From an uncultured Acidobacteriota bacterium (lineage in GTDB: Bacteria; Acidobacteriota; Thermoanaerobaculia; Multivoradales; UBA5704), in the NCBI GenBank assembly GCA_963832495.1, contig CAWHUF010000011.1:963242-1027241 (forward strand): a DNA stretch of 64,000 nucleotides. The letters are read 5' to 3'. Shown here piece by piece: positions 28,169-63,512 of the stretch. The translations under genes and the position numbers were made by a program. A model generated the notes under the pieces. That model searched no databases, was not told the DNA's origin, and worked only from the letters and a program-made list of their open reading frames with translations. Every line of letters begins with the position of its first letter. Position 1 is the stretch's first letter.

Positions 28169-29090
28169 TGCTGTCTCTGCTGCTCGCGCTTTTCCTCGCG
28201 GCGCCGCCCGCCGCGGTCTCCGCCGCTCCTCTCCGCATCGCCAGGCCTTCGGCAGCCCGGTCGAGATCGAGGTCCGGGACCTGCCCCAGGAAAACGCGCA
28301 GGAGGCCATCCAGAAGGCCCTGGCTGAAATCGCGGAGGTCGAGAGGCTGGCCAGCGGCGGCCTCTGCGGCTCTGAACGCGGCGGCGGGCAAGGGTCCCCA
28401 GCCCGTGGACCCGCGCCTCCTCACGGTGCTCACCCGCGCCCGCGACTTCTGCGTGTGGTCGGAGGGGCCCATGGACCTCTGGGCCGGGATCTCTACCGCG
28501 TTGTGGGACCTGCGACACCCCCTTCCGAGCCCCCCTCGCCGGAGCAGGCCGGGCAGGCGGTGGGCGTCGCGGGATGCGACCGCCTGACCCTCGATCCGAA
28601 AAACGGCACCGTGACCCTGGCTGAAGGGAGCGGGCTGGACCTGCGGGGATTCGCGGAAGGATTCGCCGTGGACCGCGCCGTCGAGGTCCTCAAGAAGGAG
28701 GGCGCGGCCAACGTCTTCGTCCGGATCGGACCCGTCCAGAGGGGATCGGCAGCAGGCCCCGAGCGGCAAGGGCTGGCCCGTGGAGCTCCCCTCCCCTGGA
28801 CCGCATCATCTACCTGCGCGACCGCGCGCTGGCGGTCGATCTCTGAAAACGTGTACGTCAACCAGCGGACGGGCCGCCGGGCTCAGGGTGTGCTGGCCAT
28901 CGCGGCGGTGACGGACCTGGCGATGGACGCCCAGGGACTCGCGACCTCGCTGTTCATCCTCGGTCCTCGCGAGGGGCAGCTCCGCCTCGGGTCGCTGCGG
29001 CCGCGGCCTTCGGCGCGCTGGTTTCTGGGCAGCGGATCGGGCGAGCCTCTCCGGGTGGATTATCGCTGGTCCGAGGTGACCCGGAAGTAA
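28169..29090 (+). pseudogene. apbE: FAD:protein FMN transferase (ApbE family lipoprotein) with several frame disruptions
   Basis: Signal MLSLLLALFLAAPPAAVSA. Segments in different frames: FGSPVEIEVRDLPQENAQEAIQKALAEIAEVERLA; LTLDPKNGTVTLAEGSGLDLRGFAEGFAVDRAVEVLKKEGAANVFV; VNQRTGRRAQGVLAIAAVTDLAMDAQGLATSLFILGPREG (ApbE hallmarks). Confidence 0.5.
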
Positions 29091-29102
29091 TCTGGCAACG
29101 CC

Positions 29103-29469
29103 TCAAGCCGCCGCCTCCGCGCAGCAGGACTCGCCGGGGGGGATGGGCCGGCCGTGCGGGCAGACCTCGGGATGGTCGAGGAAGGCGCAGACCTGGTCCT
29201 CGAAGCCGGCGGCGACCGGCGTCTCCCGGCCGCACTCCGAGCCGCGGCCGAGGGTCCGGGCGAGCAGCACCTCGGCGAGGCGCACCCGCCGGACCACGGC
29301 CTGGGCCTGGGCCCGGCCGCGATCGGTGAAGGCGATCTTGCCGTCCGCACCGTCCGCGAAACTGAGGAGGCCGTCCGCCAGCAGCTCCGCCACGCCGCGG
29401 CGGGCCACCGAGACGCCGGCCCGGTCCTCCTCCAGGAGCTGCCAGAGCTCGGCGAGCACGCCCTGGAGC
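29103..29469 (-). CDS. DtxR/MntR-family metal-dependent regulator-like domain (no own ATG; in-frame with the upstream ABC ATPase in this sequence)
   Basis: ...[54 protein letters not shown] resembles the DtxR dimerisation/metal-binding region (VVRRHRLAERLL...HPETCPHGHPIP). Confidence 0.45.
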
Positions 29470-30144
29470 TCGAAGCCGCCGGGCTGCTCCACGTGAGCCA
29501 GGCGGCCGTGCTCCAGCCGGACCTCGCGGCTGGCGCGGGCCGCGATCGCCGGGGCGTGCGTGACCAGGACCAGCGTGTGCCCGCGCTGGTGGAGGTCGGC
29601 GAGGAGCGACATCACGACCGCCTCGTTGACGGCGTCGAGGTTGCCCGTGGGCTCGTCGGCCAGGATCAGCGGCGGCTGGTTGATGAGCGCGCGGGCGATG
29701 CACACCCGCTGCTGCTCGCCGCCCGAGAGCTGGCTCGGCAGGTGGGACAGGCGCTCGCCCAGGCCCACCCGGCTGCAGGGCCTCCTCGGCCTCGCCCCGG
29801 TCGGTCATGCTGTGGACGTACTGGGCCAGCATGACGTTCTCGAGCGCCGTGAGATAGGGGATCAGGTGGAACTGCTGGAAGACGAGGCCCACCGTGCGCT
29901 GCCGGTAGCGCGCCAGCTCGCGGGCGGAAAGCCCGGAGAGATCGACGCCGCCGACCTCGACCCGGCCCGAGGTCGGCCGGTCGAGGCCCGAGAGGATGTT
30001 GAGCAGCGTGGTCTTGCCCGAGCCCGAGGGGCCGGTCACCGCCACCCACTCGCCCTCGCTGATCGAGAGGTCGAGATCGTCCAGGGCGCGGAGCGCTCCG
30101 AAACGGCGGCTCAGGGCCTCGGCTTCGACGAACGGCTCGGCCAT
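29470..30144 (-). CDS. ABC transporter ATP-binding protein (MacB/LolD-type ATPase; internal frame disruption near 29760)
   Basis: [16 protein letters not shown]...[17 protein letters not shown] (Walker A) ... [15 protein letters not shown] (signature) ... [11 protein letters not shown] (Walker B). Confidence 0.7.
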
Positions 30145-34560: not shown

Positions 34561-35911
34561 CATGGGCGTTAACCTAAAATCCAGCTCTTGAGAAGCTCAG
34601 CCAAGCTCTCAATCTGCGGGCGTCGCCTCTTCCGTCGAGAGTCCGCAAGGGTCAACTTTCCCTCTGAAGTAGCTTGAAGAAGAGCAGAAAGAGGAGGCAG
34701 GGGACACAAAGCCTGACGGAGGGCTGCGACCATCAGTCGAGTCCAGCGCCAGAGATGAGGCCGCTCAGGCGGGGAGCCCATGGAGCCGGTATCCCCAGGG
34801 GGAAAGTGTCAGCGCGTTTCGGTACAGTGTTTCCAATAAGAGCGCGACCACCATCTTGGCCGAGATCCAGGATTGGGCCACCAAGCGATCCTTGTGGGGC
34901 AGTTGTCCGAGTTGGAGGATCTGCTTGAGTCGTTTGAAGGCTAGCTCGATCTGCCAGCGGAAGCGATAGAGCTCCAGAATCTCAGGGGCCTCCAGCCGCT
35001 CGACTGGCAAGGTTGTGAACAGCAAAACGTAGTGGGCTGCCAAGCGGGTCTTGTCGCTGACCTGCTGGCCCTTTTTCATCGCTCGGCGGATCGCCTTTTC
35101 CTCGGCCTTCTGGGCCAAAGGCGCCGGGAGCTTCAAAATCACCAAGCGCCCGGGCAGATCCTTGCCCTTCGGATCGCTCAGCCAAACTGGCCAGTCCCCT
35201 GCCTCTCCAATCTGCAAGGTCACCGCTCGATCCAAAGCGTAGATTTTTCGTCCCTGCTGATCCTTGAGAACCGGATGAACCCAGCGCATCCGGACGAGAA
35301 CATGGCCTTGAGCTTGAACAATGGCGCGCACTCCCTTGGGTCGCAGGAAGTTGCGGTCCGCCAAGATCACATCCCCTGCCTCCACGGCCGCCCGCTCCAG
35401 CAACTCGCTGCCCTGCGCGTCGGTCAACTCCAGCCAGTCGCACGCTAAACTGCTCAAGTCCAAGGTGTAGTGAAGCCGCCACTCGGTACCTTGGCTGCCC
35501 GGACCTTGAACCGTTGTACTGTCTACGATCCGGGCTCTAAGCCCTTCCGGCACTCGCACTTGCTCCCGCATCTGGCGCGACAACTCACTGGCAATCCAAT
35601 TGAGCCAAGCCCCAGAAGAGCGCAGTCGCTTGAACAGAGCCACGGAGGAGAGGCTCGCCAATCCAGCCAGACGGGCCTGAGCCACCGTCTGCCGCAAACC
35701 ACCGTCATGAACGGCATGGAACAACAGGAGCCGCAGCAGGTCTCCAGGGGTCTGGGTATAGCGGACTCGCCGGAATGCTCCCTTCTGCCGGGCCTGCTCC
35801 TCCCATCCAGATGGAAGAAGGCTCTCGATGATCTTCCACTCGGCTTGGCTCGCTCCAGTATCCATGCCTTAAGGGTACCATGAAAGGCCCATTTTTAGGT
35901 TAACGCCTATG
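34561..35911 (-). mobile_element. IS4-family insertion sequence with about 20-bp imperfect terminal inverted repeats and 11-bp target-site duplication CCCCCAACCCC
   Basis: IR-L CATGGGCGTTAACCTAAAAT (34561-34580). IR-R ATTTTTAGGTTAACGCCTATG (35891-35911). Direct repeats cccccaacccc at 34550-34560 and 35912-35922. GC is lower than the flanks. Confidence 0.7.
34765..35865 (-). CDS. IS4-family DDE transposase
   Basis: 366-aa ORF with ...YRFRWQIELAFKRLK... C-terminal signature of IS4-type transposases. Confidence 0.8.
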   Translation of the reverse strand: MDTGASQAEWKIIESLLPSGWEEQARQKGAFRRVRYTQTPGDLLRLLLFHAVHDGGLRQTVAQARLAGLASLSSVALFKRLRSSGAWLNWIASELSRQMREQVRVPEGLRARIVDSTTVQGPGSQGTEWRLHYTLDLSSLACDWLELTDAQGSELLERAAVEAGDVILADRNFLRPKGVRAIVQAQGHVLVRMRWVHPVLKDQQGRKIYALDRAVTLQIGEAGDWPVWLSDPKGKDLPGRLVILKLPAPLAQKAEEKAIRRAMKKGQQVSDKTRLAAHYVLLFTTLPVERLEAPEILELYRFRWQIELAFKRLKQILQLGQLPHKDRLVAQSWISAKMVVALLLETLYRNALTLSPWGYRLHGLPA

Positions 35912-37388: not shown

Positions 37389-39725
37389 CTAGAGCTCCCG
37401 CAGGGCCGTGGCCACCGGCAGGCGCGCCGCGCGGATGGCGGGGAAAAGGCCGCCGATCAACCCCATCAGCAGCGAGCAGACGATGCCCAGCACGATGAGC
37501 GGCGGCGTGACGGCGAACGCGAACGACAGCTGGCTGAACGTGCTCCAGTTCAGGGTCGAGGTCTGGAACCCGTCGAAGGCCAGCCAGGCCACGCCCGCCC
37601 CGATCAGGCCGCCCACGAGCGCCAGCAGCAGCGCCTCCGACAGCACGGAGATCACCACGGGCCCGGCGCGGAACCCGAGGGCCCGCAGCGTCGCGATCTC
37701 CCGCGTCCGCGAGGCCACCGCCGCGTACATGGTGTTGAGCGCCGCGAACACGGCTCCCGCCCCCATGGTGACGGTGATGAAGATCCCGATGATCTTGATC
37801 ATCAGGGTCAGCGCCTGCGATTGGGAAGCGTAGTACTCCTCCTCGCGGATCACCTTGGTGTCGAGCTGGGGATTGCTGGTCAGGGCGTCCTTGAAGGCCG
37901 TGAACGCCGCCGGGGAATCGAGCTTGACGTAGACCGACTGGAACGAGCTGCCTCGCCGGTAGGCGGGCTGGAGCACCCCGACGTCGCACCAGATCTCCGA
38001 CTCGGGAACGCCGCCATCGGCCTCGAAGATCCCCACCACGCTCCACTCGTTCTCGCCCCAGCGCAGGCGGTTGCCCAGGTCCAGGCCCGCGAACTGCGAC
38101 GCCGCGGCCCGGCCCACCACGATCTCGTTGCGGCCGGGCTCGAACTTCCTCCCCTCGACGATCCGCACCTTGTCGCGCACCTCGAAGGCGGCCGGCTGCA
38201 CGCCCCGCAGGGGCACGTTGGCGTCGGTTCCCGTGGAACGCTTCGGCAGGTCGACGATCACGTAGAGCTCGGCCGAGGCGGCCCGCGCTCCCGGCGCCTC
38301 CGCGATGAGGCGCGTGGCCTCACGCTCCAGGCCGCTCATCATCTCGCTGTCGCTGCCGGACCGCAGCACCACGGCCGTGTCCGACGAGGCGCTCGCGGTC
38401 AGGGCGTCACGCACGCCTTCCCCGATGGAGAACACGGCGATGGAGACGATCACCACCCCGGCCACGCCGATGATGATCGCCAGCGAGGAGCCGGCGCGCT
38501 GCGGGATCGTCCGCAGGTTGACCGCCGTCACCGCCAGCGACTTGAGAGAGCCAGTTCATGGTTCATACCCTCCGCAGCGCATCGACGATGCGCAGCCGCA
38601 TGGCCTGGGCCGCCGGCAGCAGCCCGGCGAGGATCCCGAAGAACAGCACCAGCGCTGCTCCGGTCAGGAGAGCGTTGGCCGGCAGGAAGAAGACCGGCAG
38701 GAAGGACTTCAGCGCCTGGCCCAGCCCGGGAATGATCACTGCCACGGCCAGGAGCAGGCCCAGCCCGCCGCCGAGCACGGCGATGGCCACCGACTCGGCG
38801 AGCACCAGCGCCAGCACCCGCCCGCGCGAAAAGCCCAGCGTCTTCAGCACGGCCAGCTCATTGGTGCGCTCCCGCACCGCCTGCGCCATGGTGTTGCCCG
38901 TCACCACCAGCATGATGAGGAAGACCGCCGTCAGCACCCAGCGGACGATCGCCGCGATGTTGCCCACCTGGTTGGCGAAGCACTGGGCGAAGGCCTTCTC
39001 GGTGTTGGTCTTGGTCTCGGCCGGCGAGTTGGCGAACAGGCCGTCGATGCGGCTCGAGAGGCTCGGCGGCCTGCGCCGGATCGGCGATCCTCACCGTGTA
39101 CCAGCCCACGAAGCCGAGCCGCCCGCCCATGCCCTCGTTCAGGTAGTCGTAGCGGAAGTACATGCCGCTGGTGTCGGTCCCCTTCTCCTTCCCCTCGTAG
39201 ATGCCGGAGACGTTGAATTCCCACAGGCTCGACGCCACCCGGCTTGCGGTAGATCGTGGCCTGGATGGGGATGCGGTCGCCGACCTTGAAGCCGAACCGG
39301 TCGGCAAGCTGCCGGCCGACGATCGCTCCCGTGCGGTCGGAGAGCCAGGCCTTCTTCTGCTCCGGGGTCAGGACGTACTCGGGGTAGAGGTCCAGGAAGG
39401 TCTCGTGGTCGACCGCCATCTGGCCGAAGAAGTTCTTGGGGTCCTGATAGATGCCGCCGAACCAGTTGGCGAAGGTGACGGCCTCGACGCCCGGCACCGC
39501 CTTGATCCGCGGCCCGTAGGTGGCCGGCAGCGGCTGGATGAGCGCGACCTTGTGGATCGTCAGCAGGCGGTCCGCCCCCGCCAGCTCCACGCCGCCGGTG
39601 AAGGCGTTGTCGATGGCCAGCAGGGCCCCGAACAGCACGAAGCTGACGAAGACCGACAGCACCGTGAAGATCGTCCGGGCCTTCTTCCGCTTCAGGTTGC
39701 TCCAGACCAGGGGTAGGAATTTCAT
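37389..39725 (-). CDS. MacB-like ABC efflux permease (two MacB_PCD + FtsX modules); 2-3 frame disruptions
   Basis: Pieces in three frames: 38931-39725 ([25 protein letters not shown]...), 38563-38967 (FtsX TM segment ...LGFSRGRVLALVLAES...), 37389-38531 (second periplasmic domain + FtsX ...LRALGFRAGPVVISVL...). Confidence 0.65.
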
Positions 39726-40417
39726 GCCGCCGCCTCCAGCACGAGGCTGCCCTTCTCCAGGTGCACGGTGCGCCGGGCCCGCGCCGCGGCGTGGGGGTCG
39801 TGAGTGACCATGATGATGGTCTTGCCGTGCTCGCGGTTGAGCGCCTGCAGCAGGTCCAGGATCTCGTCGCCCGACTTGCGGTCCAGATCGCCCGTGGGCT
39901 CGTCGCAGAGCAGCAGCGTCGGGTCGGTGACGATGGCTCGGGCGATGCCCACCCGCTGCTCCTGGCCGCCCGAGAGCTGCCGCGGGTAGTGCCTGGCGCG
40001 GTCGGCGAGGCCGACCATGGCGAGCGCCGCCGCCACGTGCTTCTTGCGCTGCGCCGCCGACAGGTGGGTCAGCAGCAGCGGCAGCTCCACGTTGCGCTCG
40101 GCCGTGAGCACCGGCAGCAGGTTGTAGAACTGGAAGACGAAGCCGACGTGGCGCGCCCGCCAGTTGGCGAGCTGCCCTTCGGAGAGCCGGTGAATGGACT
40201 CGCCCGCCACCTCCACGGAGCCGGACGTCGGCCGGTCGAGCCCGCCGATCAGGTTGAGCAGCGTCGTCTTGCCGGACCCCGAGGGTCCCATCAGCGCCAG
40301 GAAATCTCCCGGGGGGATCTCGAGGTCGATTCCCTGCAGGATCTCGATCTTCTCATCGCCGCGCCGGTAGGTCTTGTGGACGTCCTGGACGCGGACCAGC
40401 GTACCGTTCTGCTCCAT
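39722..40417 (-). CDS. ABC transporter ATP-binding protein (MacB/LolD-type)
   Basis: Start [13 protein letters not shown] after a [54 protein letters not shown]. Confidence 0.85.
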
Positions 40418-40449
40418 TCGATCCTCCTCGTTTCTCATTACTGAGCGGA

Positions 40450-41703
40450 TTACTGAGCGGAGACCTGGACGGAGACCAGGGCCCCGTCCTTCAAGTCCGC
40501 GGGACCTTCCGTGACCACCCTCTCGCCCGCGGCGAGGCCGGAGGTCACCACCGCTTCCTCGCCCTGGCTCGCCGCGAGCCCCACCGCCCGCCGCTCCACG
40601 CGGTCACCCTGGACCACGAAGACGACGTTCTTGTCGCCCTCCTGGCGCACGGCGGCGCGGGGGACCACCACCGCGGCTTTTCCCCCGCTGTTACCCACCG
40701 GCTCTCCCGGCTTTTCGTCCCCCAGGAAAGCCACCTTGACGCCCATGTCCGGCAGGATCCGCGGGTCGAGCTGGTCGAAAGACAACCGCACCCTCACCGT
40801 GGCCTTCTGCCGGTCGGCCGTGGGCACGGGCATGATGACCCGGGACGGGATCTGCCAGTCGGGGTAGGCGTCGAGCGTGGCGAACGCCTTCTGGCCGGGC
40901 TTCACCCGCTGGATGTAGCTCTCGTTGACGTCCACCTCGACCTCGAGCGAGCTCATGTCCACCAGCGTGCAGATGCCCGTGCGGGTGAAGCCGCCGCCGG
41001 CCGACACGGGCGAGATCATCTCGCCGGGCTGGGCGTCCTTGCTCACGGCCACGCCGGAGAAGGGGGCGCGGATCACCGTGTCGTCCACGTCCTGGCGCCG
41101 CAGGGCCACCTCGCGCTCGGCCACGGTCACCTCCTGGCGGCCGACTTCGAGCCGCGCCGCGAGCGAGTCCACCTCGGCGTCGGCCGTGTCCCCCTGGGCC
41201 TGGGTCGAGACCCCCTGTTCCAGCAGGCGCCGCATGCGCTGCTGGTTGAGCTTGGCCTCGCGCAGCCGCACCTCGGTCTCGGCGAGACTCCGGCGCTGCG
41301 AGCCGAGACGGGCCTCGGCCAGGGCGAGCTGCTTTCTCGGCGTGGCGTCGTCGAGACGGGCGAGCACCTGCCCCTCGCGCACCTCCATCCCCTCCTCCAC
41401 CAGCACGTCCACCACCTTGCCCGTGACCTTGGAGGAGACAGTCGCCTGGCGGCGGGCCGTCACGTAGCCCGAGGCGTTGAGCACCGCGCCCGCCGCGGCC
41501 GAGCCGCCGGCGCGGGTCTCCGCGGGTTCCGCAGCGATGGCCTTCACCTGCACCGGCCGCGGCCGGGTGAACCACCACCATCCCGCCGCGGCCACCAGGG
41601 CCACGGCCAGCAAAACAATCCACAGACGCCCGCGGCCGCCGCTCTCTTCCACCCCCGAGCGGTCGATGCGCAGGGCGTCCAGCGAAGGTCTTTCCGAAGC
41701 CAT
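40450..41703 (-). CDS. Efflux transporter periplasmic adaptor (membrane fusion protein, MacA/HlyD family)
   Basis: N-terminal TM (LWIVLLAVALVAAAGWWWF). Coiled-coil region (LAEARLGSQRRSLAETEVRLREAKLNQQRMRRLLEQG). Beta-barrel/MPD C-terminal region. Confidence 0.8.
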   Translation of the reverse strand: MASERPSLDALRIDRSGVEESGGRGRLWIVLLAVALVAAAGWWWFTRPRPVQVKAIAAEPAETRAGGSAAAGAVLNASGYVTARRQATVSSKVTGKVVDVLVEEGMEVREGQVLARLDDATPRKQLALAEARLGSQRRSLAETEVRLREAKLNQQRMRRLLEQGVSTQAQGDTADAEVDSLAARLEVGRQEVTVAEREVALRRQDVDDTVIRAPFSGVAVSKDAQPGEMISPVSAGGGFTRTGICTLVDMSSLEVEVDVNESYIQRVKPGQKAFATLDAYPDWQIPSRVIMPVPTADRQKATVRVRLSFDQLDPRILPDMGVKVAFLGDEKPGEPVGNSGGKAAVVVPRAAVRQEGDKNVVFVVQGDRVERRAVGLAASQGEEAVVTSGLAAGERVVTEGPADLKDGALVSVQVSAQ

Positions 41704-42691: not shown

Positions 42692-45672
42692 ATGAATTTT
42701 CTTCTATTCTCAAAGCGCGCCATTTCCCTCGCCGTTCTGCTGCTCGTCCTCGCCATGCCGGCGATGGCGCAGCTCCAGAGCGGCAACCTGCACGGCATCG
42801 CCGCGGGGGTGGAAGGCACGCCGATGCCCGGGGTCACCGTGACCCTGACGGGCGTCGGCGCTCCGCAGACCACGACCACGGACGAGCAGGGACGGTTCCG
42901 GTTCCTCGGTCTGTCGCCCGGCCTCTACACCGTCGAGAGCGCGCTCCAGGGCTTCGCGTCCGACCGGCGCGACAACGTCGAGATCAACGTCGGCCGCAAC
43001 ACCGAGGTCACGCTGACCGTGCGGGTCACGGACGTGATCGAGGTCCGCGGTGAACGGGCCGATGCTCCGTTGCTCGACACACGCCGCGTCGCCCAGAGCC
43101 AGACGGTCACGCTCACGGAGCTGGAGAGCATCCCCACGGCCCGCGATCCCTGGGCCGTCCTCAGCTCCATGCCGGGCGTGCTGACCGACCGCATCAACGT
43201 CGGCGGCAACGAGAGCGGCCAGCAGTCGCACGTTCGTCGGTCCCGGCTCCGGCGGCGACCAGGCCGTCTGGTCGCTCGACGGCATGGTGATCACCGACAT
43301 GTCGGCCATCGGCTCCTCGCCCGGCTACTACGACTTCGAGTCGTTCGAGGAGATGCAGGTGACGACCGGCGGCAGCGACGCCTCGATCGCCACCGGCGGC
43401 GTGGTGCTCAACATGGTCACCCGGCGCGGCGACAACGCAGTGGCGCGGCTCCGGCCGCTACGTGGTCTCGGACGACAGCATGCAGTCCGACCTCGAGTTC
43501 GACCGCGAGCGACCTCGGCCAGGCCGGCCCCTGGAACAACGGCAACGCCCAGACCGCCTTCAAGCAGGGCAACCGGATCGTCGAGAACGTCGGACTGACG
43601 GCGCCGAGCTCGGCGGCCCCGTCGTCAAGGACCGCCTGTGGGTCTGGGGCTCGTACGCCAAGCCGGAGATCCACCTGCTGACGATCGACGACTTCAGCGA
43701 CAAGACCACCCTCGAGGAGCTGGAACGCTCAAGCTGAACGCCCAGATCACGCCGAGCAACTCGGCGACCGCCTTCGCCTGGCAGAGCGACAAGGTCAAGA
43801 TCGGCCGCAACGCCAGCCCCACTGCGGCCCCAGGAGACCACCTGGAACCAGTCGAAATTCGGGCCCGATCCCGACGGCCTGGAAGGTGGAGGACACCCAG
43901 ATCTTCGGCACCAGCTTCTTCATCACCGGCATGTACTCGGTGGTCAACGGCGGCTTCCAGCTCGTGCCCCAGGGCGGCGACGGTGATCGCCTTACCGCGA
44001 TCGCCGGGCTGAAGTGGCACAACAGCTTCCTGCTCAACCAGATCGAGCGCCCCAGGAGCAGATCAAGGCCGACGCCTCCAACTTCTTCAACACCGGCGAC
44101 CTCTCCCACGAGCTCAAGTACGGCGCCGGCTACCGCACGGCCGAGCAGTCGTCGCTCTTCACGCTGGCCGGGCGGCGGCGTCGAGATCGTCCTGGGCAAC
44201 GGCAACTACCTGCTGGGCCTCGCCCGCGACGGCGGTGCCCGAGGTCGAAGACCGAGTACACCAACGCTCTACGTGCAGGACACGCTGGTCAAGGGCAACC
44301 TCACCGCCAACGTCGGCCTGCGCTACGACCGCCAGGGCGGCGAGAACCTGGCCTCCACCGTGCCGGCCAACCCGGTCTTCCCCGAGCTGCTGCCCGCCGG
44401 CCACTACGAGGGCGGCGACAGCCGGCTTCGAGTGGACGACGATCACTCCCCGCCTCGGCCTGACCTACGCCCTGGGCGCCCAGCGCAAGACCCTGCTGCG
44501 CGCCAGCTACTCGCGCTTCGCCGACCAGCTCGGCACCGGCGTCGCCGGCTTCCTCAACCCGCTCGGCGGGCTGCAGGCTACCGGCTACTTCTACACCACC
44601 AACAACGGCGGCCCCACCCTGGAGCCGGGCGAGCTCGGCCCCGAGTCCTCGGGCTCAGCGGCAACATCAATCCGATCACCTTCGAGCCGCTGCAGTCGAA
44701 CGCCGTGGATCCGAACCTCGACGCGCCGATCACCGACGAGCTCCTGCTCGGCATCGAGCACGCCCTGCGGCCGGAGCTTCGCTGGTGGGCCTGAACCTCA
44801 ACTACCGGCAGCTCCACCGGCATCCTCGAAGCCGAGCGCCTGGTCTTCGACGCGACGATCCGTTCTCCGACGAGAACCTCGGCACCGTCGGCCGCGTCCA
44901 CCGGCGGGACGACTACGTGCCGAGCGCACCTCAGATCCTTTCGTGGCCCCCGACGGCCGCACCTACACCGTGCACTACTGGGACCTGCGCGACGGCGTCA
45001 CCACCCGCAACGGCTTCCGGCTCGAGAACGGCGACCGCGAGCAGGAGTTCCTGGGCGCTTCGCTGACCTTCAACAAGCGGCTCGCCAACCGCTGGATGAT
45101 GCGCGGCAACGTCTCCTGGCAGGACTGGACGTGGAACATCCCCGACAGCGAGAACGAGGATCCGACCGACACCATCGGCCGGCGGCATGGTGGACGGCAC
45201 CGACGTGCTCCAGGGCTCGGGCACTCGTCTCCGGCGCCAAGGGCAACGTGTTCATCAACAGCACGTGGTCCTACAGCCTGAACGGCCTCTACCAGATCGC
45301 GCCCGACCGCCCCTGGGGCTTCAACGTCGCCGCGAACCTGAACGGCCGCCAGGGCTACCCGCTCCGCTACGTCGCGGCGCGTCAACCGTGCGGCGATCAG
45401 TGACAACGCCGGCAGTCGGCATCGACATCCCGATCGACTCCTCTCCGGACGCCTTCCGCTACCCCGACGTCCACGTGGTCGACCTGCGGGCCGAGAAGGA
45501 GTTCACCTTCAGCGACTTCGGCTTGACGTTGGGGATCGACCTGTTCAACGCCTTCAACGAGTCCTACGTGCTCCAGCGCCAGGGCGTCCTCGGGTTCAAC
45601 TCCTCCAACAGGGTGGTGGAGGTCCTGAGCCCGCGCGTCCTCCAGCTTGGAGCCCGTGTGAGCTTCCGTTAG
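42692..45672 (+). pseudogene. Oar-like TonB-dependent-receptor-like outer-membrane protein (CarboxypepD_reg N-terminal domain + plug-like + beta-barrel) with about 20 frame disruptions
   Basis: Signal MNFLLFSKRAISLAVLLLVLAMPAMAQ. GVTVTLTGVGAPQTTTTDEQGRFRFLGLSPGLYTV. ELESIPTARDPWAVLSSMPGV. Remaining pieces in alternating frames, homologous throughout to the minus-strand paralog 56853-59241. Ends ...LQLGARVSFR. Confidence 0.6.
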
Positions 45673-47323: not shown

Positions 47324-47805
47324 GACGTCCAGCCTCCTTTCCGGCCGAGCTTGACCACGATGTCGAGCTCCTTCTTCGTGACCGGCTGCACGGAAAGGCG
47401 CGAGCCCTTCTGCGTCACCATCATGTCCTTGAGCCCCGGCGTCTCCTTGAGCACCGCGAGGGGGACGATGTCCGGGAACGTCTCGACGAAGCGGACGTCC
47501 ACCATCATCCAGGTGGGATTGTCCGGATCGCTCTTGGGATCGAAATACTTGTGCCCGTCCTGGAAGGCGTACGGGTCGGGATAGCCGCCGCGGGCGATCT
47601 CGGCCAGGCCGGTCACCCCCGAGGGCTCCGCGTTCGAGGCGTAGAACAGGACGCCGTCGCCCGGCTTCATGTCGTCCCGCATGTAGTTACGCGCCTGGAA
47701 GTTGCGCACGCCTTCCCAGGTCGTGGTGCCGTCGCGCTCCAGATCCTGGATGGTGTACGCCTCGGGTTCGCACTTCAGCAGCCAGTATTTTTTTGTCCGT
47801 GCCAT
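47320..47805 (-). CDS. EVE (PUA-like) domain protein
   Basis: MARTKKYWLLKCEPEAYTIQDL...GVRNFQARNYMRDDMKPGDGVLFYAS... typical EVE-domain N-terminus. Confidence 0.7.
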   Translation of the reverse strand: MARTKKYWLLKCEPEAYTIQDLERDGTTTWEGVRNFQARNYMRDDMKPGDGVLFYASNAEPSGVTGLAEIARGGYPDPYAFQDGHKYFDPKSDPDNPTWMMVDVRFVETFPDIVPLAVLKETPGLKDMMVTQKGSRLSVQPVTKKELDIVVKLGRKGGWTS

Positions 47806-47885
47806 GCCGTCCCTCCCGGGAGGAGTTTATCCGATGCATCTCTGGGTCTTCATGAAGACGAGGAGGATCGGCCCGATCTGCCCTT

Positions 47886-49562
47886 CGAAGAGACGCCCCG
47901 GCGTTGGTGGACCCGGTGAGGGCGTGGTAGAGGACTGGGGCGTCTCTACGGAACGGTGGTGCCCGTTGCGGACGTTGAGGTTACGGGGATGTCGAGGAAG
48001 CGCCCCCGTAACCTCAACGTTGGCCTCGGCACGACGGGTCCGTAGAGATGGGATGAGAAGGCCACCCTCCCTGGTGCGCAGTGCCATAGAATGGCCTGCA
48101 AACTGGGTACAAAGCGCTGGTAGGCGCAAGGAAGGGAGAGTGGCCGTGGGGAATGTTATCAGAGTGGAGGTGGAGACGGTGGTGGGCGTGGATCTCGGGG
48201 ACCGTTCGAGTCAAATCTGTTGCCTGAACCGAGAAACGGGAGCGATCCTGGAAGAGAAGCGTCTGTCGACGACCACGGCGAGCTTTCAGCGCTACTTCGA
48301 GGGCAGGAGGTCGTGTCTGGTGGTGGTGGAGACCGGGACGCACACGCCGTGGGTGCGACGGTTGCTGGTATCGACGGGACATCAGGTGATCGTCGCCAAT
48401 GCCAGCAAGGTGCGGGCGATCTCGGCGAGCGTGCGCAAGACGGACGAACGGGATGCCCGCTGGCTGGCGCAGTTGGGCCGGGTGGATCCGGAGTTGCTGA
48501 GTCCTGTCCATTCTCGCAGTGAGGAGGCGCAGCAAGCGCTGGCCGTGGTGCGCGCTCGGGAAGGCTTCGTCAAGACGCGGACGATGCTGATCAATCAGGT
48601 GCGCGGGATGGTGAAGTCGTTCGGTGCCCGGCTGCCGTCGTGCTCGGCGAAGGGCTTCGCCCACAGAGCGTCGACGGCCTTGCCGCAGGGACTGAAGGCG
48701 GCTCTGGAGCCGCTGCTGGAGGTGATCGCGGATCTGAGTGATCGAATCCGGAGTTTCGACCGGGATATCGAAGCCTGGGCGAAGCGTTTTCCGGTCACCG
48801 AGCGGCTGCGCCAGATCAAGGGGGTGGGCGCGCTGACGGCGCTGGTGTTCGTGCTGACGCTGGACGATCCTTCTCGCTTCGCTCGCTCCCGCTCGGTGGG
48901 CGCCTACCTCGGGCTGGTGCCGGCGAGTCGAAGCTCGGGCAACTCGACGCCGCAATTGCCGATCACCAAGCACGGCGACGGCCTGCTGCGCCGCTTGCTG
49001 GTGCAGGCGGCGCACTACATCCTCGGTCCGTTCGGACAGGACAGCGACCTGCGCCGCTTCGGGCAGGAACTGGCCCGGCGCGGCGGCAAGAGCGGTAAGA
49101 AACGAGCGGTGGTGGCGGTGGCCCGGAAACTGGCGGTGTTGCTGCACCGGCTGTGGATCAGCGGCGAAGACTACGAGCCGCATCGCCGGGCGGCGTTGAC
49201 TTCGGCAGCGGCATAAAAGCTCAGGTAGGGAAAACTCAGGAGGAAGAAACGAGGATGTAGGGCACAATCTGGTCGATCGGAGCTCGAGTCGAAACCCCCG
49301 TTGTCGGCGACTGCGCTGGGCGTCTTGGCCTTCGAGGCCGCCGTAGAGATCGCAGCGCCGCTTCGGTGGCACCCCATCATGCACCGAGCCCAACGAGAGG
49401 CTCCTTGAGAGTGCGGATAGAAGACTCGGGGACAGACCGCTGCTCCGAAAGGCCAGATAAGGATGGCCGCCAAGGCGGCCTTGACATTTGGGGCCTTCTC
49501 ATAGAAGACGCCCCAGTCCTCTACCGGGCACTTTCCGGGTCCTCAAACGTCGGGGCGTCTCC
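47886..49562 (+). mobile_element. IS110-family (IS1111-like) element lying between REP-like palindromes AGACGCCCC...GGGGCGTCT; boundaries approximate
   Basis: Left: nested dyads 47886-47947 and a long imperfect inverted repeat 47940-48045 (arms share ACGTTGAGGTTACGGGG). Right: related palindrome 49503-49562. Confidence 0.45.
48146..49216 (+). CDS. IS110-family transposase (DEDD type)
   Basis: GTG start after an AAGGAAGGGA RBS. ...VVGVDLGDRSSQICCL... N-terminal and ...IKGVGALTALVFVLTLDDPSRFARSRSVGAYLGLVPASRSSGN... C-terminal (Transposase_20). Confidence 0.8.
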   Translation: MGNVIRVEVETVVGVDLGDRSSQICCLNRETGAILEEKRLSTTTASFQRYFEGRRSCLVVVETGTHTPWVRRLLVSTGHQVIVANASKVRAISASVRKTDERDARWLAQLGRVDPELLSPVHSRSEEAQQALAVVRAREGFVKTRTMLINQVRGMVKSFGARLPSCSAKGFAHRASTALPQGLKAALEPLLEVIADLSDRIRSFDRDIEAWAKRFPVTERLRQIKGVGALTALVFVLTLDDPSRFARSRSVGAYLGLVPASRSSGNSTPQLPITKHGDGLLRRLLVQAAHYILGPFGQDSDLRRFGQELARRGGKSGKKRAVVAVARKLAVLLHRLWISGEDYEPHRRAALTSAAA

Positions 49563-55055: not shown

Positions 55056-56832
55056 TCAGCGCCGGAGATACCGGTCCGCTTCGGCGAGCACCTCCTTCGG
55101 TGGCTCGGTGCAGCCTTTCTCACGGAGCAGCAGGGCCAGGTAGCCGCGCAGCAGGCCGGCGGCGTCCGCTTCCCGGAGGAGCTTCTCCAGAGACGGCGCG
55201 GCGGCGAGGGCCTGCTCCAGGGTGATCTTCGTCCAGCCAGCCCGCTGGATCTCGGCACAGAGGCTCTTCGCTTCGGCATCGGAGAGTGCCAAAGCCACCA
55301 TGTCGGTGATCACGACGCCGTCCACAGACCAGACAGCCTCGTCCCCTGGAGCGCCGGGACCCACATACATCGAGGACTGGCCGCTCTCGTTGCCCCCTAC
55401 ATTGATCCTGTCCCTGAGCACCCCAGGCGTGCTTTCGAGCACAGCCCAGGGATCCCGTGCCGTGGGGATCTTCTTCGAGCTCGGTCTGCGAGACGGTGGC
55501 ACTCGTGGTGATCCGGCGCGCGTCGAGCAGAGGCGACTCGGCGGTGACGGTGATGATGTCTTCTACAGGTGCATTGACCGGCAGCACGTGGCGTACGGGC
55601 TGGAGGCCGGACGGCGCGGTCTCCTCCGGGTCCACGGCCATGAGGCTGGTGTGGTCCGTGACCAGGTGGTGGCGCAGGCCGAGCGCGGTGATGCCGCGGC
55701 GCACCTCCACCGGGTCTCCGCCGTCGGCCAGGCTGTCCGACAGCCCCTGGATCTTCCGGCGCGCCCAGAGCTTGTCGATGCCGGCGCCCTTGAACTCTCC
55801 GGCCACCGCGAAGGAGTCCTGCCAGGCCGCGCCGCCCCGGAGCCCGGAGACGGTCACCGCCCCGTCGCCCTCCTCGAGACGGGCGGTGACCACCAGAGGA
55901 TCGCCCAGGTAGAGGTCGGGGACCCGCGAGGGCCACGCTTCCGCCGAAAGATCGCTCCACTGCACCTCGATCTGCCGGAGCATCGGCGATTCGAGCTGCG
56001 AGAACAGCGCGCCCATGGCCGCCTGGACGTTCCGGACGTCGGTGATCGCGGTGAACGATCCGCTTCCCAGATCCCCCAGCCGGCGCAGGAGCGGAACGTT
56101 GGGCGCCGCGCCGATCGCCACCGGGAAGAGCCGGCGGTTGCCCAGGTTCGACTTGAGGAACTGAACGACTTTCTCCTCGTCACCGAGTTGGCCGTCCGTG
56201 GCGAAGATCACCTGCGGCACCAGGCCGGCCGGCGCCGGTTTGCGGAAGGCGATCTGGAGCGCCGGGAGCATCATCGTGCCACCATCGGCATTGAGCCCGG
56301 TGATGAAGCGGCGAGCCTTTTCCAAGGCGTCCGGAGTCGCCGGCACGCTCTCTGGAAAGACGGAGGTGGCCGTCGAATCGAACTCGACGACGTTGAACCA
56401 GTCGCCCGCCTGGAGCTTGCCCAGACCGAACAGAAGCGCCTCCCGGGCCTGCGGCATCGAAGGTCCCTCCATCGAGCCCGAGGTGTCGATGATGAAGATG
56501 GTTTCCCGTGGCAGCCGGGACACCACGGCTCCCGGCGCGTCGGGCGGCATGACCATGAGCAGCGCGTACTTCTCACCGTCCACCTCTTCCGAATAGAACA
56601 CGGCCCGCGGCTCGCGGCCGATGTCCGGCGCCCAGTCTGAGGATGGGTTCTGAAAGATCTGCGTGACCTTCGTCCGGGCGATGATCCCGGTCACCCGCAC
56701 CTCGACGGTGGCGCCAAGGACGGGCGCCTCCGTTTCTCCGAAATACAAGCCCTGCTCAGCCCAGACAAAGTCGTTCGCAACGATCACCAGAAATAAAGAC
56801 AGCGCTAGCCTTTGAATCAGATTCGATCGCAT
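55056..56832 (-). pseudogene. Truncated tandem duplicate of the VIT-vWA-Oar fusion gene: vWA with internal VIT deletion + first about 60 aa of the receptor domain, then joined to an unrelated 80-aa C-terminal segment
   Basis: MRSNLIQRLALSLFLVIVA (GGAGG RBS; homologous to the start of the 59045-61156 copy). vWA DxSxS FIIDTSGSME. ...IITVTAESPLLDARRITTSATVSQTELEE / KKIPTARDPWAVLESTPGV... then VALALSDAEAKSLCAEIQRAGW.... Confidence 0.5.
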
Positions 56833-56852: not shown

Positions 56853-59800
56853 TCATCGCCAGGAAACTCTCAGGCCGAGCCGGCAGGTGCGCGGCGCGAC
56901 CTCATCATTCGCGAGGCCGGCCCGGCTCGTGCCGAGATCGGCCTCGCGCCAGAGGGTGGCGTCCTCGTTCAGCAGATTGAAGACGTCCAGGCCGAACGTC
57001 AGGTTGAAGTCACTGAGGGTGATCTCCTTCTCCAGCCGTGCGTCCACGGTGATGACGTCGTCCCCCCGCGAAGAGCCGATCTCCACGACGGGGACCCGTG
57101 CGAGCCCGGCCCGCTCGCGGACGACCTGCCGGTACCAGGCCGCCGGGTATCCCTCGCGGCCATTGACCGCGAGCCCGGCGTTGAACCCGGTGCTGAGGTG
57201 GGGGAAGAACTGGTAGAGGCCGTCCCAGTGGAACGACCAGCCGCCCAGGATGAAGCGGTCGGCCGCGTAGGGGCGGTCGAGCGCCGAGGCGGGCACGGCC
57301 ACGGGGTCGCCGTCACGGTCGCCGCCGCCCAGGGCGCGGGTGGGATCGTCGTAGCGCTCGAAGCCGGGGCCGACACGCCACGTCCAGTCGCTCCAGGTGA
57401 CGTGGCCGCGGGACATCCAGCGGTTCGAGAGCCGCTTGTTCAAGAGCAGGGAGAAGCCGAGGTAGTCCTGTTCCCGGTCGCCGTTCGTGAGGAGGGTGCC
57501 CCCGGTCCACGTGAGGCCCGGGCGCAGGTCAAAAACCGTTTCCGTCAAGGAGATCCAGTCGGCGGCCGTGGCGGCGAAAACCTTTCCATTTTCATCGCGC
57601 ACCAGGAGCCGCTCTTCGAGCACGTCCTGCGTCCGCCTCCAGGTACCCTGGAAACCGATCATGAGCTCATAGGAGAAGCTGTGCTCGACGCTGACCGCAA
57701 GCTCGTCCGTGATCTCCGGAGCCAGGTCCGAAGCGACGGCGTTGGGGTTGACGCCCAGGAGAGGATCGCGGTTGGCGCTGTACCAGGGCTGGTCTCCCTC
57801 GACCGTTGAGAAGAAGTACGACGTTGCGGAGACATTGGGATCGAGCCGGAACGCCGGCGCCGTGCCGAGCCGCGAAGCGAACCGGGAGAGCGACGTCCTC
57901 AGCAAGGTGCTCCTCTCGGGTCCGAGCGCCCAGTTCAGCCCGAGCCGGGGTGACAGGGTCTGGGGCCTGATGTCTCCAGAAGGTTGGCCGGGGATCCCCA
58001 GGTCCTGCTCGTCGAAGCGGAGCCCCAGGGTGAACGTCGCATTGCCCAGGGTGGCGATGTCCTGCACCCAGGCGCTCGCCGTTTCCGTCTCCGTCCTCAC
58101 TTCCCCGCTGCTCCAGACCTCCACCACCCTGGCGTTGCCGGGCTCCAGGGTCTCCTCCGCGATCTCGATCCGGCCCGGAGCCGTGAGGAGGGTCCGGCTG
58201 TCCTGTCCGCGCCACGAAAGCCCCGCCTTCAGCTCATGGGAAAGCTCGCCGGTGTTGAAGAAGTGGCTCCCCGTGAGCCTCGGCGATCTCCGTCCGGTGG
58301 TCCTCGGCAAAACCGAACCACGTCCCCTGGGCAACGCCCGCGGGATCGATCCGCGCCTCTCCCGCCAATCCCCCCAGCGGGACGTCGCTCTGGGTTTGAT
58401 CGATGCTCCCCCACTGGCCGCTCACATAAAAGTTGGCGGTGAAGATGTGCGTGTCCTCGATCTTCCAGATTTCATCCCGGACATCCCGGTCCCAGGTGGT
58501 CTCCGGTGCGCGGGCCGGAGAGGCCCCCAGTCCCAGGATCGAGGCGTCTCCCCGCTTCCAGAACAGGGTGGCCGAGTTGTGCTCGCCGGGTTGGCTGTTC
58601 AGCTTGAACGATCCATTTTCGAGGAGGGTTTCCTGCCGCTGGCCACCCAGGACGTTGCTGTCGGTCTCGTCGCGCTGGAGCGATCCCCACGCCCAGAGCC
58701 GGTCCCGGCGGAGCGGCCCTCCCAATTCGGCGCTGCCGCTGTCGAGCTTTTCGATCCCGTTGTCCCTGGCTTCCTGAAGAGCGTCTCCGCCCCAGAGGAA
58801 CTGGCCCGAGCCGCGCCACTCGTTGGTGCCTCGCTTGGTGACCATATTGACGTGCACGCCAGGGGTCTCCAGAACCGCGTCCGCGCCGCCGGTCGTGACG
58901 GTGACCTCCTCGTAGCTGTCGTAGTCGTAATACGCGGGAGAAGATCCCAGAGCGCTCATGTCCGTGACCGCGAAACCGTCGACCACCCAGGTGTTCTGAT
59001 CGCCCGCAGCTCCCTGCCCCACGGCAACCGTGGGCTGGCCGCTCTCATCGCCGCCCACGCTGACGCGGTCCGTGAGGACGCCCGGCGTCGACTGCAGCAC
59101 GGTCCAGGGATCGCGAGACGTGGGGATCTTCTTCGAGCTCGGTCTGCGAGACGGTACAGCTCTGGGTGATCCGGCGCTCGTCGAGCAGAGGGCTTTCGGC
59201 GGTGACGGTGATGCAGTCCTGCACTCCGTCGTCGTAGGCAAAGCCCCCGGAGCCCCGCGGCGGATTCACCGGCACGGTACGGATCGCCGGCAAGACGCCG
59301 TTCGGAGCCGAAGCCACCACGTCCACGGCGACCAGGCTGGTATAGCCCGTGACCAGGTGGTGGCGCAGGCCGAGCTCGACGATCGTGCGGCGGAGCTCAT
59401 CGGCCTCCGTGGCATTGATACCGTTTCCCAAATAGGCGCTGTCCAGAAGGGAATCGATCTTCTTCTTCGCCCACAGCTTGTGGATGCCCGCGGTGCCTGC
59501 GGTGCCTGCGCCATGGATCTCGGCCGCTTCGGGGAACGAGTCCTGCCAGAATTCGCCGCCGCGCCGGCCCGAGACCTCGACTGGCCCGGAAGAGGACCCG
59601 CGCCTTGCCACGACAGTCAGCGGCTCGCCCAGATAAAGGTCGGGAATCCGTGCGGGCCACATCTCGGCCGCCGGATCAGCCCAGCGGATTTCGAGGTCCC
59701 GGAGCATGGGCGCTTCGAGTTGGGCGAACAGGGCGCCCATGCGCTCGGCCACTTCCGAGACGCTGGAAACGTGAGTGAATGTGCCACGGCCGAGATCCGC

Positions 59801-61156
59801 TGATTTCCGCAGGAACGAGACGTTCGGGGCCGATCCGATCGCCACGGTGAACAGCCGCCGCTCGCCCAGGTGCTTGCCGAGGTATTGATAGACCTCCGCC
59901 TCGTTGCTGATCTGCCCGTCGGTCACGAACATGATCTGCCGCACGAGGCCTTCCGGGGGTGCCGGCCGCCTGAGGGGGACCACGGGCGCCTTCTCTTCGA
60001 GGGCCAGCGTCACTCCCGCGAGGATGTTGGTGCCGCCGTCCGCGCGGAGACTTTCGACGTACCGCCGGGCTGTCTCCAGGGTTCCTGGCTCCACCGGAAC
60101 GCTGTCGGGAAAGAGGACTGACGCGTCCGAGCTGAACTGGATGACGTTGAACCAGTCGCCCGGCTGGAGCCGGTCCAGAGCCAGCAGAAGGGCCTTTCGC
60201 GCCTGCCGCATGGACGCGCCTTCCATGGAGCCGGAGGTGTCGATGATGAACACCGCCTCACGCGGGAGCCGCGCCGCGACCGCTTCGGGAGCGTCCGGCG
60301 GCATCACCATGAGCAGGTCGTAGCGCTCGCCATCCAACTCTTCCGAATAGAAGACGGCCCGCGGCTCCCGGCCCACTTCCGGAGTCCACTCCAGGATGAA
60401 ATCGCTGTCCGCCATCGCCACGCTCCGGGCCAGGTCCACCGCGTAAATGTGATTCGCACCCTTTGCGACGGTGATTCCATGGGAGGGGCTCGCCACCCGG
60501 CCGAGCGGGAAGCCCGTTGCGAGATCCACGTGAAAGCCGAACGGGTTCGCGGGTGCCGATCCGGCCGGCAGCACCGGAGGATTCATGAGCGGCCCCTCGT
60601 GCGACTTGCTCGCGGCAACGCTGATCCACGGCGGGCTGTACCGGGGCGCGACGACCATGGGGAACCGCAGCCGGAACCGTCCCGCCTCCCAGCGCACGAT
60701 CTGCTGCATTTCGATCACGATTTCGACCGTTTCTCCCGGGCCGATGTTGGCCACGGAGGTCGTGAACACGTCGGTCCTCTGCTGTTCGATCAGAGACGCC
60801 TTGCGTCCTTCCTGCTTGGCCGTCTCATAGGTCCGCTTGGCCGCCGCCTTCTCCTGGATTTCGCCCACGACGAGGCGATCTCCGATCTTCATCTTCAACG
60901 TATCGACGGCCGCGTCCTCGGGCAATGGAAATATATAAATACCTTCCACCCAGTCCCGGGCCGGATTCCTGAAGATCTGTGTGACCTTGGCGCGGGCGAT
61001 GACGCCCGTGACCTTGACTTCCACCGTGGAACCGAGCACGGGAGCGGGCTCAGCCCCTTGTCCCTTGAAGAACAGGCCCTGCTCGGCCCGCGCCGCACCG
61101 GCTCCGATCAGGACGAGCAGGCAAAGCTCCGCCACTCGAATGAAGATCGATCTCAT
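56853..61156 (-). CDS. VIT-vWA domain N-terminal module fused to an Oar-like TonB-dependent-receptor-like beta-barrel (about 1430 aa; two apparent frame disruptions at about 59150 and about 58290)
   Basis: Signal MRSIFIRVAELCLLVLIGAGAARA. VIT-like region (VEVKVTGVIARAKVTQIF...RLRFPMVVAPRY). vWA (VFIIDTSGSMEG..., MFVTDGQISNE). Then ITVTAESPLLDERRITQSCTVSQTELEE-(K)IPTSRDPWTVLQSTPGVLTDRV... continuing through the barrel to ...CRLGLRVSWR. Confidence 0.55.
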
Positions 61157-62211: not shown

Positions 62212-63512
62212 TTATCCCTGCGCCGCCCGGATCATCTCCTCCAGCCGGTCCAGTCCCCTGCGCGACCTCTTCCAGCGACGGGCCGAAGGAGAGGCGGACG
62301 TGCTGGTGGAAGCGGGAGAGGCGCTGGGCGCGGCGGCGGCCGGGGTTGACGTCGAAGAAGACGCCCGGGCACGCAGATGACCTTGTGCTCCAGAGCGGCG
62401 CGGAAGAAAGCCATGCCGTCCGAGATCGGCTCGGGCAGGTCGCGCACGGAGACGAAGACGTAGAAGGTCCCGGCAGGGTCGGGGTAGACGCGCATGCCCA
62501 TCTCGTGGGCGCGGCGCAGCATCAGCTCCCGCTTGGGCAGGAAGGCGTCGCGGATGGCCCGGGTCTCGGCCAGCACCAGGTCCGGGCTCCATCAGATCGA
62601 CCGCCGCCCGCTGCTGCGGGCGCGAGCCGCCGCCGTCCAGGAAGGAGCCGGCGCTCTCGACGGCCTCGATGACCTGGCGCGGCCCCACCGTCCAGGTGAC
62701 CCGCCAGCCAGGATAGCGCCAGTTCTTGGTCAGGCCGTCCACGATCACCACCGGGTCGCGGTCCACGTCCTCGACGTAGCGGGCGGCGCTCACCATCGGG
62801 CCCGGGCTCGCCTTCGCCGAAGTTCCAGACGTAGTGGGAGTAGAACTCGTCGATCAGCAGCGTGCAGTCGAGCTCGCGGCCGACGGCGATCCAGTCCGCG
62901 AGCTCGCCGCCCGAGACCAGCTTGCCCATGGGGTTGCAGGGGTTCGAGAACAGCAGCACCGAGAGGCCGCGGCCGAGCACCTCGCGCCGCAGATCCTCGA
63001 CGCCGAAGCTGTAGCCCTGCTCGCGGCGCAGCAGGATGGGGATCGGCGTGACCAGCCGGAAGATGTCGAGCAGCTCTTCGTAGGCCGTGTAGTCGGGCAG
63101 GAAATGGCCGAGGTTGACCTGGTCGAGCGAGGCCACGGCCCGCGTCAGGGCCGCCCGGCCGCCGCCCGAGATCGCCACGTTCTCGGCCGTGTACTGCGAC
63201 GCGCATGCCCCGCCGGAAGAGCTGGTTGTAGAGCGCGGCCACGGCCTCCCGCAGCTCCCAGACGCCCGCGACCGGCGCGTAGTAGTGGTCGGCGGGATCG
63301 ATCGCCAGGGCCTCGACCCGCGGCGGCGCTCCCGGCAGCGGTCCGGTCTCCGGCTGCCCCTGGCCGAGGTTGGACCACGCGGGATCGCCCGTCTTGTAGC
63401 CCCGGGCCGTGGCCTCCTTGGTGACGTAGACCACGCCCGTCCGCGGGACGGAGCGGAAGGCCTGGAGGGTGGAGGGTGGGGGCTGGGTCGCCATGGGGGC
63501 GAAGGGTAGCAT
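62212..63512 (-). CDS. PLP-dependent aminotransferase class I/II (about 4 frame disruptions)
   Basis: Pieces: YAPVAGVWELREAVAALYNQLFRRGM; SNPCNPMGKLVSGGELADWIAVGRELDCTLLIDEFYSHYVW; VDGLTKNWRYPGWRVTW; GTFYVFVSVRDLP...AFFRAALEHKVICVPG; end ...LDRLEEMIRAAQG. Confidence 0.6.

Follow-up and report, generated by a model that had tools for sequence, protein, structure and literature searches.

A predicted VIT-vWA head in the CarboxypepD_reg position of Oar-type TonB-dependent transporters centred on Thermoanaerobaculia

What is an integrin-like binding module doing on an outer-membrane transporter, and is the combination real? The question is raised by a gene, here called A, on the minus strand of a 64,000-nt stretch of DNA (the window) from an uncultured Acidobacteriota bacterium (assembly GCA_963832495.1, contig CAWHUF010000011.1). 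In A, a VIT domain and a vWA domain with a metal ion-dependent adhesion site (MIDAS) precede what is predicted to be a TonB-dependent transporter (TBDT), and the whole is spread over three reading frames. We propose, with a probability of roughly 0.6 for the proposal taken as a whole, that A belongs to a Thermoanaerobaculia-centred family of Oar-type TBDTs in which the CarboxypepD_reg domain has been replaced by a VIT-vWA-MIDAS head of ~600 residues, that this head is periplasmic and binds a protein partner, and that the frameshifts in the window are most likely errors. The features of A, all on the minus strand and numbered by position within the window, are as follows.

56853-61156, minus strand: gene A, a VIT-vWA-headed TBDT, 1433 aa once two extra bases are removed
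61085-61156, minus strand: Sec-type signal peptide, MRSIFIRVAELCLLVLIGAGAARA/EQ, identified by eye from the sequence
59249-61030, minus strand: the entire head, residues 43-636 (NCBIfam TIGR03788, 636.5 bits)
60710-61027, minus strand: VIT domain, residues 44-149 (Pfam PF08487, E 5.6e-34)
59780-60256, minus strand: vWA domain, residues 301-459 (Pfam VWA_3, E 1.5e-20)
59171-59218, minus strand: candidate TonB box region DCITVTAESPLLDERR, residues 647-662, its motif kept in long and short forms of the family
58873-59176, minus strand: plug domain, residues 661-761 (Pfam Plug PF07715, 27.3 bits against a cut-off of 23.9)
59128-59131, minus strand: frameshift site 1, an extra base in GAGCTCGAA[G]AAGATC (~59131)
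58269-58272, minus strand: frameshift site 2, an extra G in a run of four, CACGGG[G]AGCC (CACGGGGAGCC), at 58269
56856-58872, minus strand: predicted TBDT-type beta-barrel, residues 762-1433, from the fold match of the model of a homolog (P0058) and a weak PF25183 match

Is A one gene? As given, it occupies three successive frames, 61156 to ~59131, ~59130 to ~58270 and ~58268 to 56853, with open reading frames (ORFs) of 703, 335 and 493 aa. The 703-aa ORF (61156-59045) encodes the signal peptide, the VIT and vWA domains and then ...ITVTAESPLLDERRITQSCTVSQTELEE, and it meets a TGA stop 27 codons past the junction of head and receptor, so that A in the uncorrected sequence is literally not one ORF. 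The second frame takes over from ~59130 with IPTSRDPWTVLQSTPGV... and continues up to ~58270, and the third leads from ...GSHFFNTGELSHELK through the C-terminal ...LGLRVSWR to its end at 56853. We read these as a single gene because the orthologs of A carry one uninterrupted ORF. Two of them, at loci L001 and L002, are 76-79% identical to A, are single ORFs of 1414-1417 aa, and are syntenic with it, the order there being pseudouridine synthase, aminotransferase, A, B (a companion gene described below), inositol monophosphatase and SNF2 helicase. Homologs read across the head/receptor junction as ...TVSQTELEKIPTARDPW... in one frame. Both frame changes in A are +1, one surplus base each, and the orthologs lack them: at site 1 they have GAGCTCGA(A/G)AAGATC, that is GAGCTCGA(A/G)AAGATCCCC, which reads ELEKIP in frame, and site 2 reads ...AEAHGSHFFNTGELSHELK once it is corrected. 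The original prediction, which was made from this sequence alone, had called the ends of the gene, a length of about 1430 aa and two indels at about 59150 and about 58290. The corrected product agrees with it in extent and length, and the indels are present, at ~59131 and 58269. It had also allowed that a stop and a new start might divide the head from the receptor as two genes; the single ORF of the orthologs speaks for one, though a TGA does follow the junction in the uncorrected window.

The corrected product consists, in order, of a signal peptide, a VIT domain, a vWA domain with a full MIDAS, a C-terminal beta/helical region, a Pro/Gly-rich linker (~residues 613-646), a TonB box, a plug, which spans frameshift site 1, and a barrel. 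The signal peptide, as read from the sequence, is without a lipobox cysteine. The head that had been described, with signal peptide, VIT-like domain and MIDAS-bearing vWA domain, was confirmed by Pfam on the corrected product and by TIGR03788, whose match lies above the cut-off of 551.65 bits and covers profile positions 3-592 of 629. The MIDAS residues D306-x-S308-x-S310, T376 and D413 are invariant in an alignment (A1) of 35 full-length homologs. The putative TonB-box motif, ITVTAESPLLDERR (residues 649-662), is a candidate by its sequence, which is similar to the consensus xTxVVTA; alignments of 35 long and 30 short homologs show it to be conserved, and its family form, (E/D)x(I/L/V)(T/V)VT(A/S)ESPLLDERR, is kept throughout. 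A Pfam scan of corrected A found no CarboxypepD_reg domain (PF13620/PF13715), and the barrel matched PF25183, the family of Oar-type barrels, weakly.

Is the C-terminal part of A a transporter? A sequence search of the PDB with the barrel returned zero significant matches, and for that reason folds were compared. In an AlphaFold2 (AF2) model of homolog P0058, which begins with the vWA domain and includes everything C-terminal to it, the barrel has predicted local distance difference test (pLDDT) values of 80-95, while the linker and TonB box are disordered. The Foldseek matches of this model in the PDB are TBDTs only, with FusA (4zgv) at the top (E 2.4e-30) and PirA, YddB, PfeA, FpvA and SusC after it (TMt 0.62-0.78 for those other than FusA). 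The same search did not match the type V autotransporter barrel of 12-16 strands plus passenger; the P0058 barrel matches plugged TBDTs instead. As modelled, then, the C-terminal ~800 aa are a plugged TBDT, the number of strands being approximate. For the head we turn to the family of gene B, in whose AF2 model the first ~600 residues form one unit. This unit superposes as a whole on inter-alpha-inhibitor heavy chain 1 (PDB 6FPY; Foldseek E 1.9e-33, ~600 aligned columns), with the MIDAS motif kept, though the identity is only 18% and 6FPY is a eukaryotic secreted protein with other partners and another chemistry.

Might A nevertheless be an accident of one genome? A search of 5.8 billion proteins found at least 80 clusters of 1390-1540 aa, all single ORFs, that cover 97-100% of corrected A at 39-79% identity, and those that are named come mostly from metagenome-assembled genomes (MAGs) of Thermoanaerobaculia. 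To judge from these sequences, the fusion is a real and recurrent family, neither a one-off nor a chimera. The original prediction had not recognised this architecture; it is not unique, and the full-length, in-frame clusters that share it go under misleading automatic names, namely 'marine proteobacterial sortase target protein', 'VIT domain-containing protein' and 'Ca-activated chloride channel family protein'. A literature search found no publication that describes VIT-vWA fused to a TBDT, and a 2019 survey of 34,893 transporters distinguished five N-terminal architectures, made from CarboxypepD_reg, STN and AMIN, none of them with VIT or vWA (PMC6434023). The fused family is thus recurrent in the databases, yet undescribed and mis-named.

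The sortase-target name has its origin in the head. TIGR03788 proteins, of ~750 aa, align end to end with the head of A, with the same VIT domain, vWA domain and C-terminal region and the same ...YTSLVAVD end point, but they end in a sorting tail and have a sortase, whereas A is non-proteobacterial and has a complete TBDT as its C-terminal tether. At a classical locus in Shewanella colwelliana, for example, the protein ends in ...LPVATQ and a transmembrane helix, and the sortase gene follows. Among the matches listed from reference genomes, 78 of 80 loci align only to residues ~38-635 of A and belong to classical sortase-target proteins, found in Proteobacteria, Nitrospira and other groups; one locus is fused. 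In A there is no LPXTG-type sorting signal (motif, transmembrane helix and basic tail): TIGR03788 positions 593-629 are unmatched, and the TonB box and plug follow. Nor is there an adjacent sortase (TIGR03784) in the window, L001 or L002, where the neighbours are the aminotransferase, B and inositol monophosphatase. The name 'marine proteobacterial sortase target protein' is therefore a misnomer for the fused members. The C-terminal tails of the bacterial VIT/vWA family are known to be interchangeable: a member may have GlyGly-CTERM, PEP-CTERM, or LPXTG with a sortase dedicated to it (Haft and Varghese, PMC3237569). In the fused family the sorting tail is swapped for an entire transporter.

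What does the head replace on the transporter side? The architecture of the Oar subclass is CarboxypepD_reg, TonB box, plug and 22-strand barrel. With the prototype, Oar of Myxococcus xanthus, A has in common a signal peptide, an N-terminal extension before the TonB box, a plug and a large barrel; the extension is an Ig-like CarboxypepD_reg domain of ~80 residues there and a VIT-vWA-MIDAS module of ~600 residues in A (PMC6434023). The Oar likeness of A comes from CarboxypepD_reg-headed relatives of its barrel, not from the sequence of Oar itself. Among 1.84 billion representatives, the nearest non-fused relatives of the barrel are proteins of ~950-1010 aa with CarboxypepD_reg, Plug and PF25183 (OMP_b-brl_4). 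The window itself holds a gene of this kind:

42692-45672, plus strand: CarboxypepD_reg-headed Oar-type paralog, the reference architecture (CarboxypepD_reg E 4e-15)

In two fused proteins from other genomes, P0048 and P0045, the plug and barrel are 73% and 68% identical, respectively, to those of this paralog after frameshift correction, and only 41% identical to A's own barrel. Near-identical barrels are thus found with either head, so that VIT-vWA and CarboxypepD_reg are interchangeable on them. By sequence comparison, the VIT-vWA module occupies exactly the position of CarboxypepD_reg on an Oar-type TBDT core. This is the replacement that had been proposed at the outset, and the barrel relatives together with P0048 and P0045 bear it out; so too the reading of A into a receptor core shared with the paralog. 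Of the description of the paralog, the CarboxypepD_reg head stood, and some two dozen frameshifts had gone unmentioned. How might heads be exchanged? No stretch of these genes is more conserved than the TonB-box/plug junction, which suggests that the exchange probably took place by recombination there. Immediately upstream of the broken paralog, at 37389-41703 (minus strand), is a MacB-type ABC exporter set comprising an FtsX/MacB_PCD permease, an ABC ATPase and an HlyD-family adaptor.

Directly downstream of A is a second VIT-vWA gene, one that has no barrel:

55056-56832, minus strand: gene B, barrel-less tandem paralog of A
55513-55560, minus strand: putative TonB box of B, the same motif as in A
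55062-55283, minus strand: predicted helical C-terminal domain of B, ~75 aa and five helices in the AF2 model, in place of the barrel

B encodes a signal peptide, a VIT domain that is largely deleted here, a vWA domain, a TonB box, about two thirds of a plug and the helical domain of ~75 aa, for which there is no Pfam match. Its orthologs form a conserved family of 789-825 aa. In the AF2 model of the family the helical tail is confident, and the TonB-box/plug segment is disordered (pLDDT <35) though highly conserved. Relative to orthologs B1 and B2, B in the window has an in-frame deletion of ~520 nt (at ~56640-56660) that removes residues ~72-247, which is most of the VIT domain; the breakpoints are ...SDW/VEG... 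and ...LEW/TPD.... A and B are adjacent in L001, in L002 and probably on one further MAG contig. It may be speculated that B is a decoy for TonB, a plug acting in trans, or cargo of A.

Further from A, an IS110-family transposase gene lies at 47702-49216 (plus strand), between EVE/Zn-ribbon genes and the SNF2 helicase, where L001 has a PIN/MazE toxin-antitoxin pair, and there is a DDE_Tnp_1 transposase gene at 34765-35865 (minus strand).

Where, then, is the head? In a transporter the TonB box makes contact with TonB through the latter's C-terminal domain, which is periplasmic. Since the head of A is N-terminal to its TonB box, which must be periplasmic to meet TonB, canonical topology would make the head periplasmic as well. 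The N-terminal extension of Oar also precedes its TonB box, and FecA-type extensions hold the same position (PMC6434023). By this reasoning from topology, the head is most likely a periplasmic appendage rather than a surface adhesin. The original prediction had pictured a surface-exposed module for adhesion or ligand capture, a placement that runs counter to canonical topology for a head N-terminal to the conserved TonB box and that would call for a new step of export. We envisage that the head, a large alternative to the CarboxypepD_reg extension, would hang in the periplasm from the transporter by its flexible linker, and that its MIDAS would hold a periplasmic protein partner, in the manner of other N-terminal extensions, which link their transporters to partners in the periplasm. 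Candidates for the partner might be cargo, a regulator, or the co-encoded, barrel-less B. The FecA/FpvA-type transporters with an STN domain offer a parallel in that they, too, have a folded extension upstream of the TonB box, one that faces the periplasm and binds a partner; their fold is unrelated, the head of A is ~10 times larger, and an ECF (extracytoplasmic function) sigma factor is found beside one distant member of the fused family only. At that locus (L085, 7319-7900, distant member P0086), the VIT-vWA transporter gene has two divergent genes upstream of it, one for the ECF sigma factor and one for a Ser/Thr kinase that has an FGE-sulfatase domain, an arrangement, seen at one locus only, that is reminiscent of the FecI/FecR-type signalling pairs.

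Several points weigh against the proposal of a periplasmic, partner-binding head on an Oar-type TBDT. Canonical topology is the sole basis for placing the head in the periplasm, while relatives of the head bear sorting signals that lead elsewhere to retention at the cell surface, and Oar itself mediates TonB-dependent protein export (PMC6434023; PMC11658791). Pfam support is marginal for both the plug and the barrel of A, and the plug of the P0058 model has a low pLDDT, 40-72. As for partners, B is not next to the copy of A in L003, which is 51% identical, and no conserved partner gene besides B was found, the distant loci sharing no neighbours. Beyond B in the close relatives, there is no conserved operon partner in the form of ton genes, a sortase or a sigma/anti-sigma pair. 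Among the Pfam-assigned neighbours at the loci examined there are no ton genes, some neighbours being without an assignment.

What of the frameshifts? Comparison with orthologs indicates that those in A are most likely errors of sequence or assembly or, failing that, signs of a very recent inactivation. We favour an artefact of sequence quality because the spectrum of changes is insertion-only and because each frame piece keeps a high amino-acid identity. Eight events in A, B and the aminotransferase gene are unambiguous, and every one is a +1 insertion. The aminotransferase gene (Aminotran_1_2; 63512-62215, minus strand) has insertions of one base at five sites (63203, 62797-62806, 62586, 62369 and 62263), all of them outside homopolymers and four of a G on the coding strand; its DNA is 92% identical to the L001 copy, and its pieces keep 92-98% amino-acid identity to orthologs. 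The frame pieces of A show no other damage and share 70-84% identity with its ortholog. In the CarboxypepD_reg paralog, a frameshift-aware alignment of protein to DNA counts ~22 one-base insertions and ~2 deletions, the nearest relatives at the DNA level being short fragments of <=72% identity. As a control, the same kind of alignment found zero events in the SNF2 helicase and inositol monophosphatase genes. Segmentation of the window by the G+C content of third codon positions points to more same-strand frame switches within genes, as at 28954-30144 (minus strand), where an ABC_tran domain is cut at profile position 89 of 137. Long housekeeping genes that are intact in the window include those for topoisomerase I, tyrosyl-tRNA synthetase, citrate synthase and the SNF2 helicase.

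One might argue instead that the frame changes are real. A would then be a pseudogene, or else a split gene that yields a soluble, periplasmic VIT-vWA protein of 703 aa ending just past the TonB box. The VIT-vWA frame does stop 27 codons past the junction as given, and the frameshifts are unevenly spread, clustered in some genes and missing from others, several of them long, a pattern that also fits real decay of selected genes. B, moreover, has its ~520-nt in-frame deletion in VIT, and it has, at 55473, the same one-base insertion as site 1 of A. This shared insertion lies in a block of 37 nt that is identical, extra base included, in A (~59103-59139) and B (~55445-55481), genes that are 66% identical overall; in L001 the corresponding blocks of A and B differ at ~7 positions. 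The comparison suggests local homogenisation at the TonB-box/plug junction, by gene conversion or by assembly cross-talk. If the insertion is real, gene conversion would account for its presence in both genes; as it stands, the identical insertion requires either gene conversion or an artefact specific to the sequence context, and this is an awkward point for the error explanation. Set against real decay is the spectrum, which with +1 changes throughout A, B and the aminotransferase gene and ~22 of 24 events as insertions in the paralog is atypical of natural decay. The aminotransferase at 92-98% identity despite five shifts shows no decay accompanying them, and the pieces of A are intact at 70-84%. 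Real frameshifts are, in our judgement, unlikely, though they are an alternative to be taken seriously.

Does the barrel perhaps export its own head? In an autotransporter-like scheme, a TonB-energised Oar-type barrel would thread its own VIT-vWA passenger to the surface, and possibly also B by way of B's TonB box and plug segment, with the MIDAS then serving as an adhesin or ligand trap. There is precedent in that Oar is needed for the TonB-dependent secretion of the 50-kDa protease PopC (PMC6434023; PMC11658791), but the CarboxypepD_reg extension of Oar is dispensable for that secretion, so that in the sole known case of export the N-terminal extension is not required (PMC6434023). The top structural neighbours of the barrel include FusA and YddB, which transport protein; here a folded vWA unit of ~65 kDa would have to pass a lumen of 35-40 Angstrom. 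The LPXTG, GlyGly-CTERM or PEP-CTERM tails of the head family elsewhere are typical of envelope or surface proteins, and the conserved, disordered TonB-box/plug segment of B recalls the TonB-box translocation regions of bacteriocins. The passenger is covalently upstream of the TonB box, however, and its export would drag the box beyond the reach of TonB. No TBDT is known to display its own N-terminus, and the sequence bears no resemblance to type V passengers or linkers. We regard self-export as rather improbable. A bolder form of the idea makes the Oar-type barrel a TonB-powered exporter of VIT-vWA modules in general, for surface display of its own head and/or translocation of B through the TonB-box/plug segment. 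It is something of a long shot; if true, it would be a new energy-coupled route of surface display in diderm bacteria, and it would add a fourth means of tethering to the three, by sortase, rhombosortase or exosortase, that serve this module elsewhere.

Programmed +1 frameshifting at CUC-GAA-G-AAG, giving a soluble 703-aa head as well as the full-length fusion, would explain why two paralogs only 66% identical otherwise have the same site in the same 37-nt context, but we reject it as extremely improbable, since site 1 is in frame in the 76-79% identical orthologs and in more than 80 other homologs, a second, unrelated shift follows 860 nt downstream in a G4 run, the nearby aminotransferase gene, a housekeeping gene, has five similar insertions, no slippery or stimulatory element is evident, and the shifted 21-mer occurs among metagenome contigs in no homolog and just once elsewhere, a chance match in unrelated sequence.

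What does a VIT-vWA-headed transporter family mean for the TBDTs? Their N-terminal extensions have been thought to be limited to a few small types, STN, CarboxypepD_reg and AMIN. The family shows that the N-terminal slot can also hold an entire integrin-like MIDAS module of 65 kDa, which swaps with CarboxypepD_reg on near-identical barrels. Dozens of Acidobacteriota entries under the name 'marine proteobacterial sortase target protein' are mis-described outer-membrane transporters. The finding connects the Oar-type transporters, the sole TBDTs implicated in protein export, with the orphan VIT-vWA 'sortase target' family. It also gives a concrete handle on the role of N-terminal extensions, since tests can be made of the MIDAS ligand, of the pair of A and B and of where the head is located.

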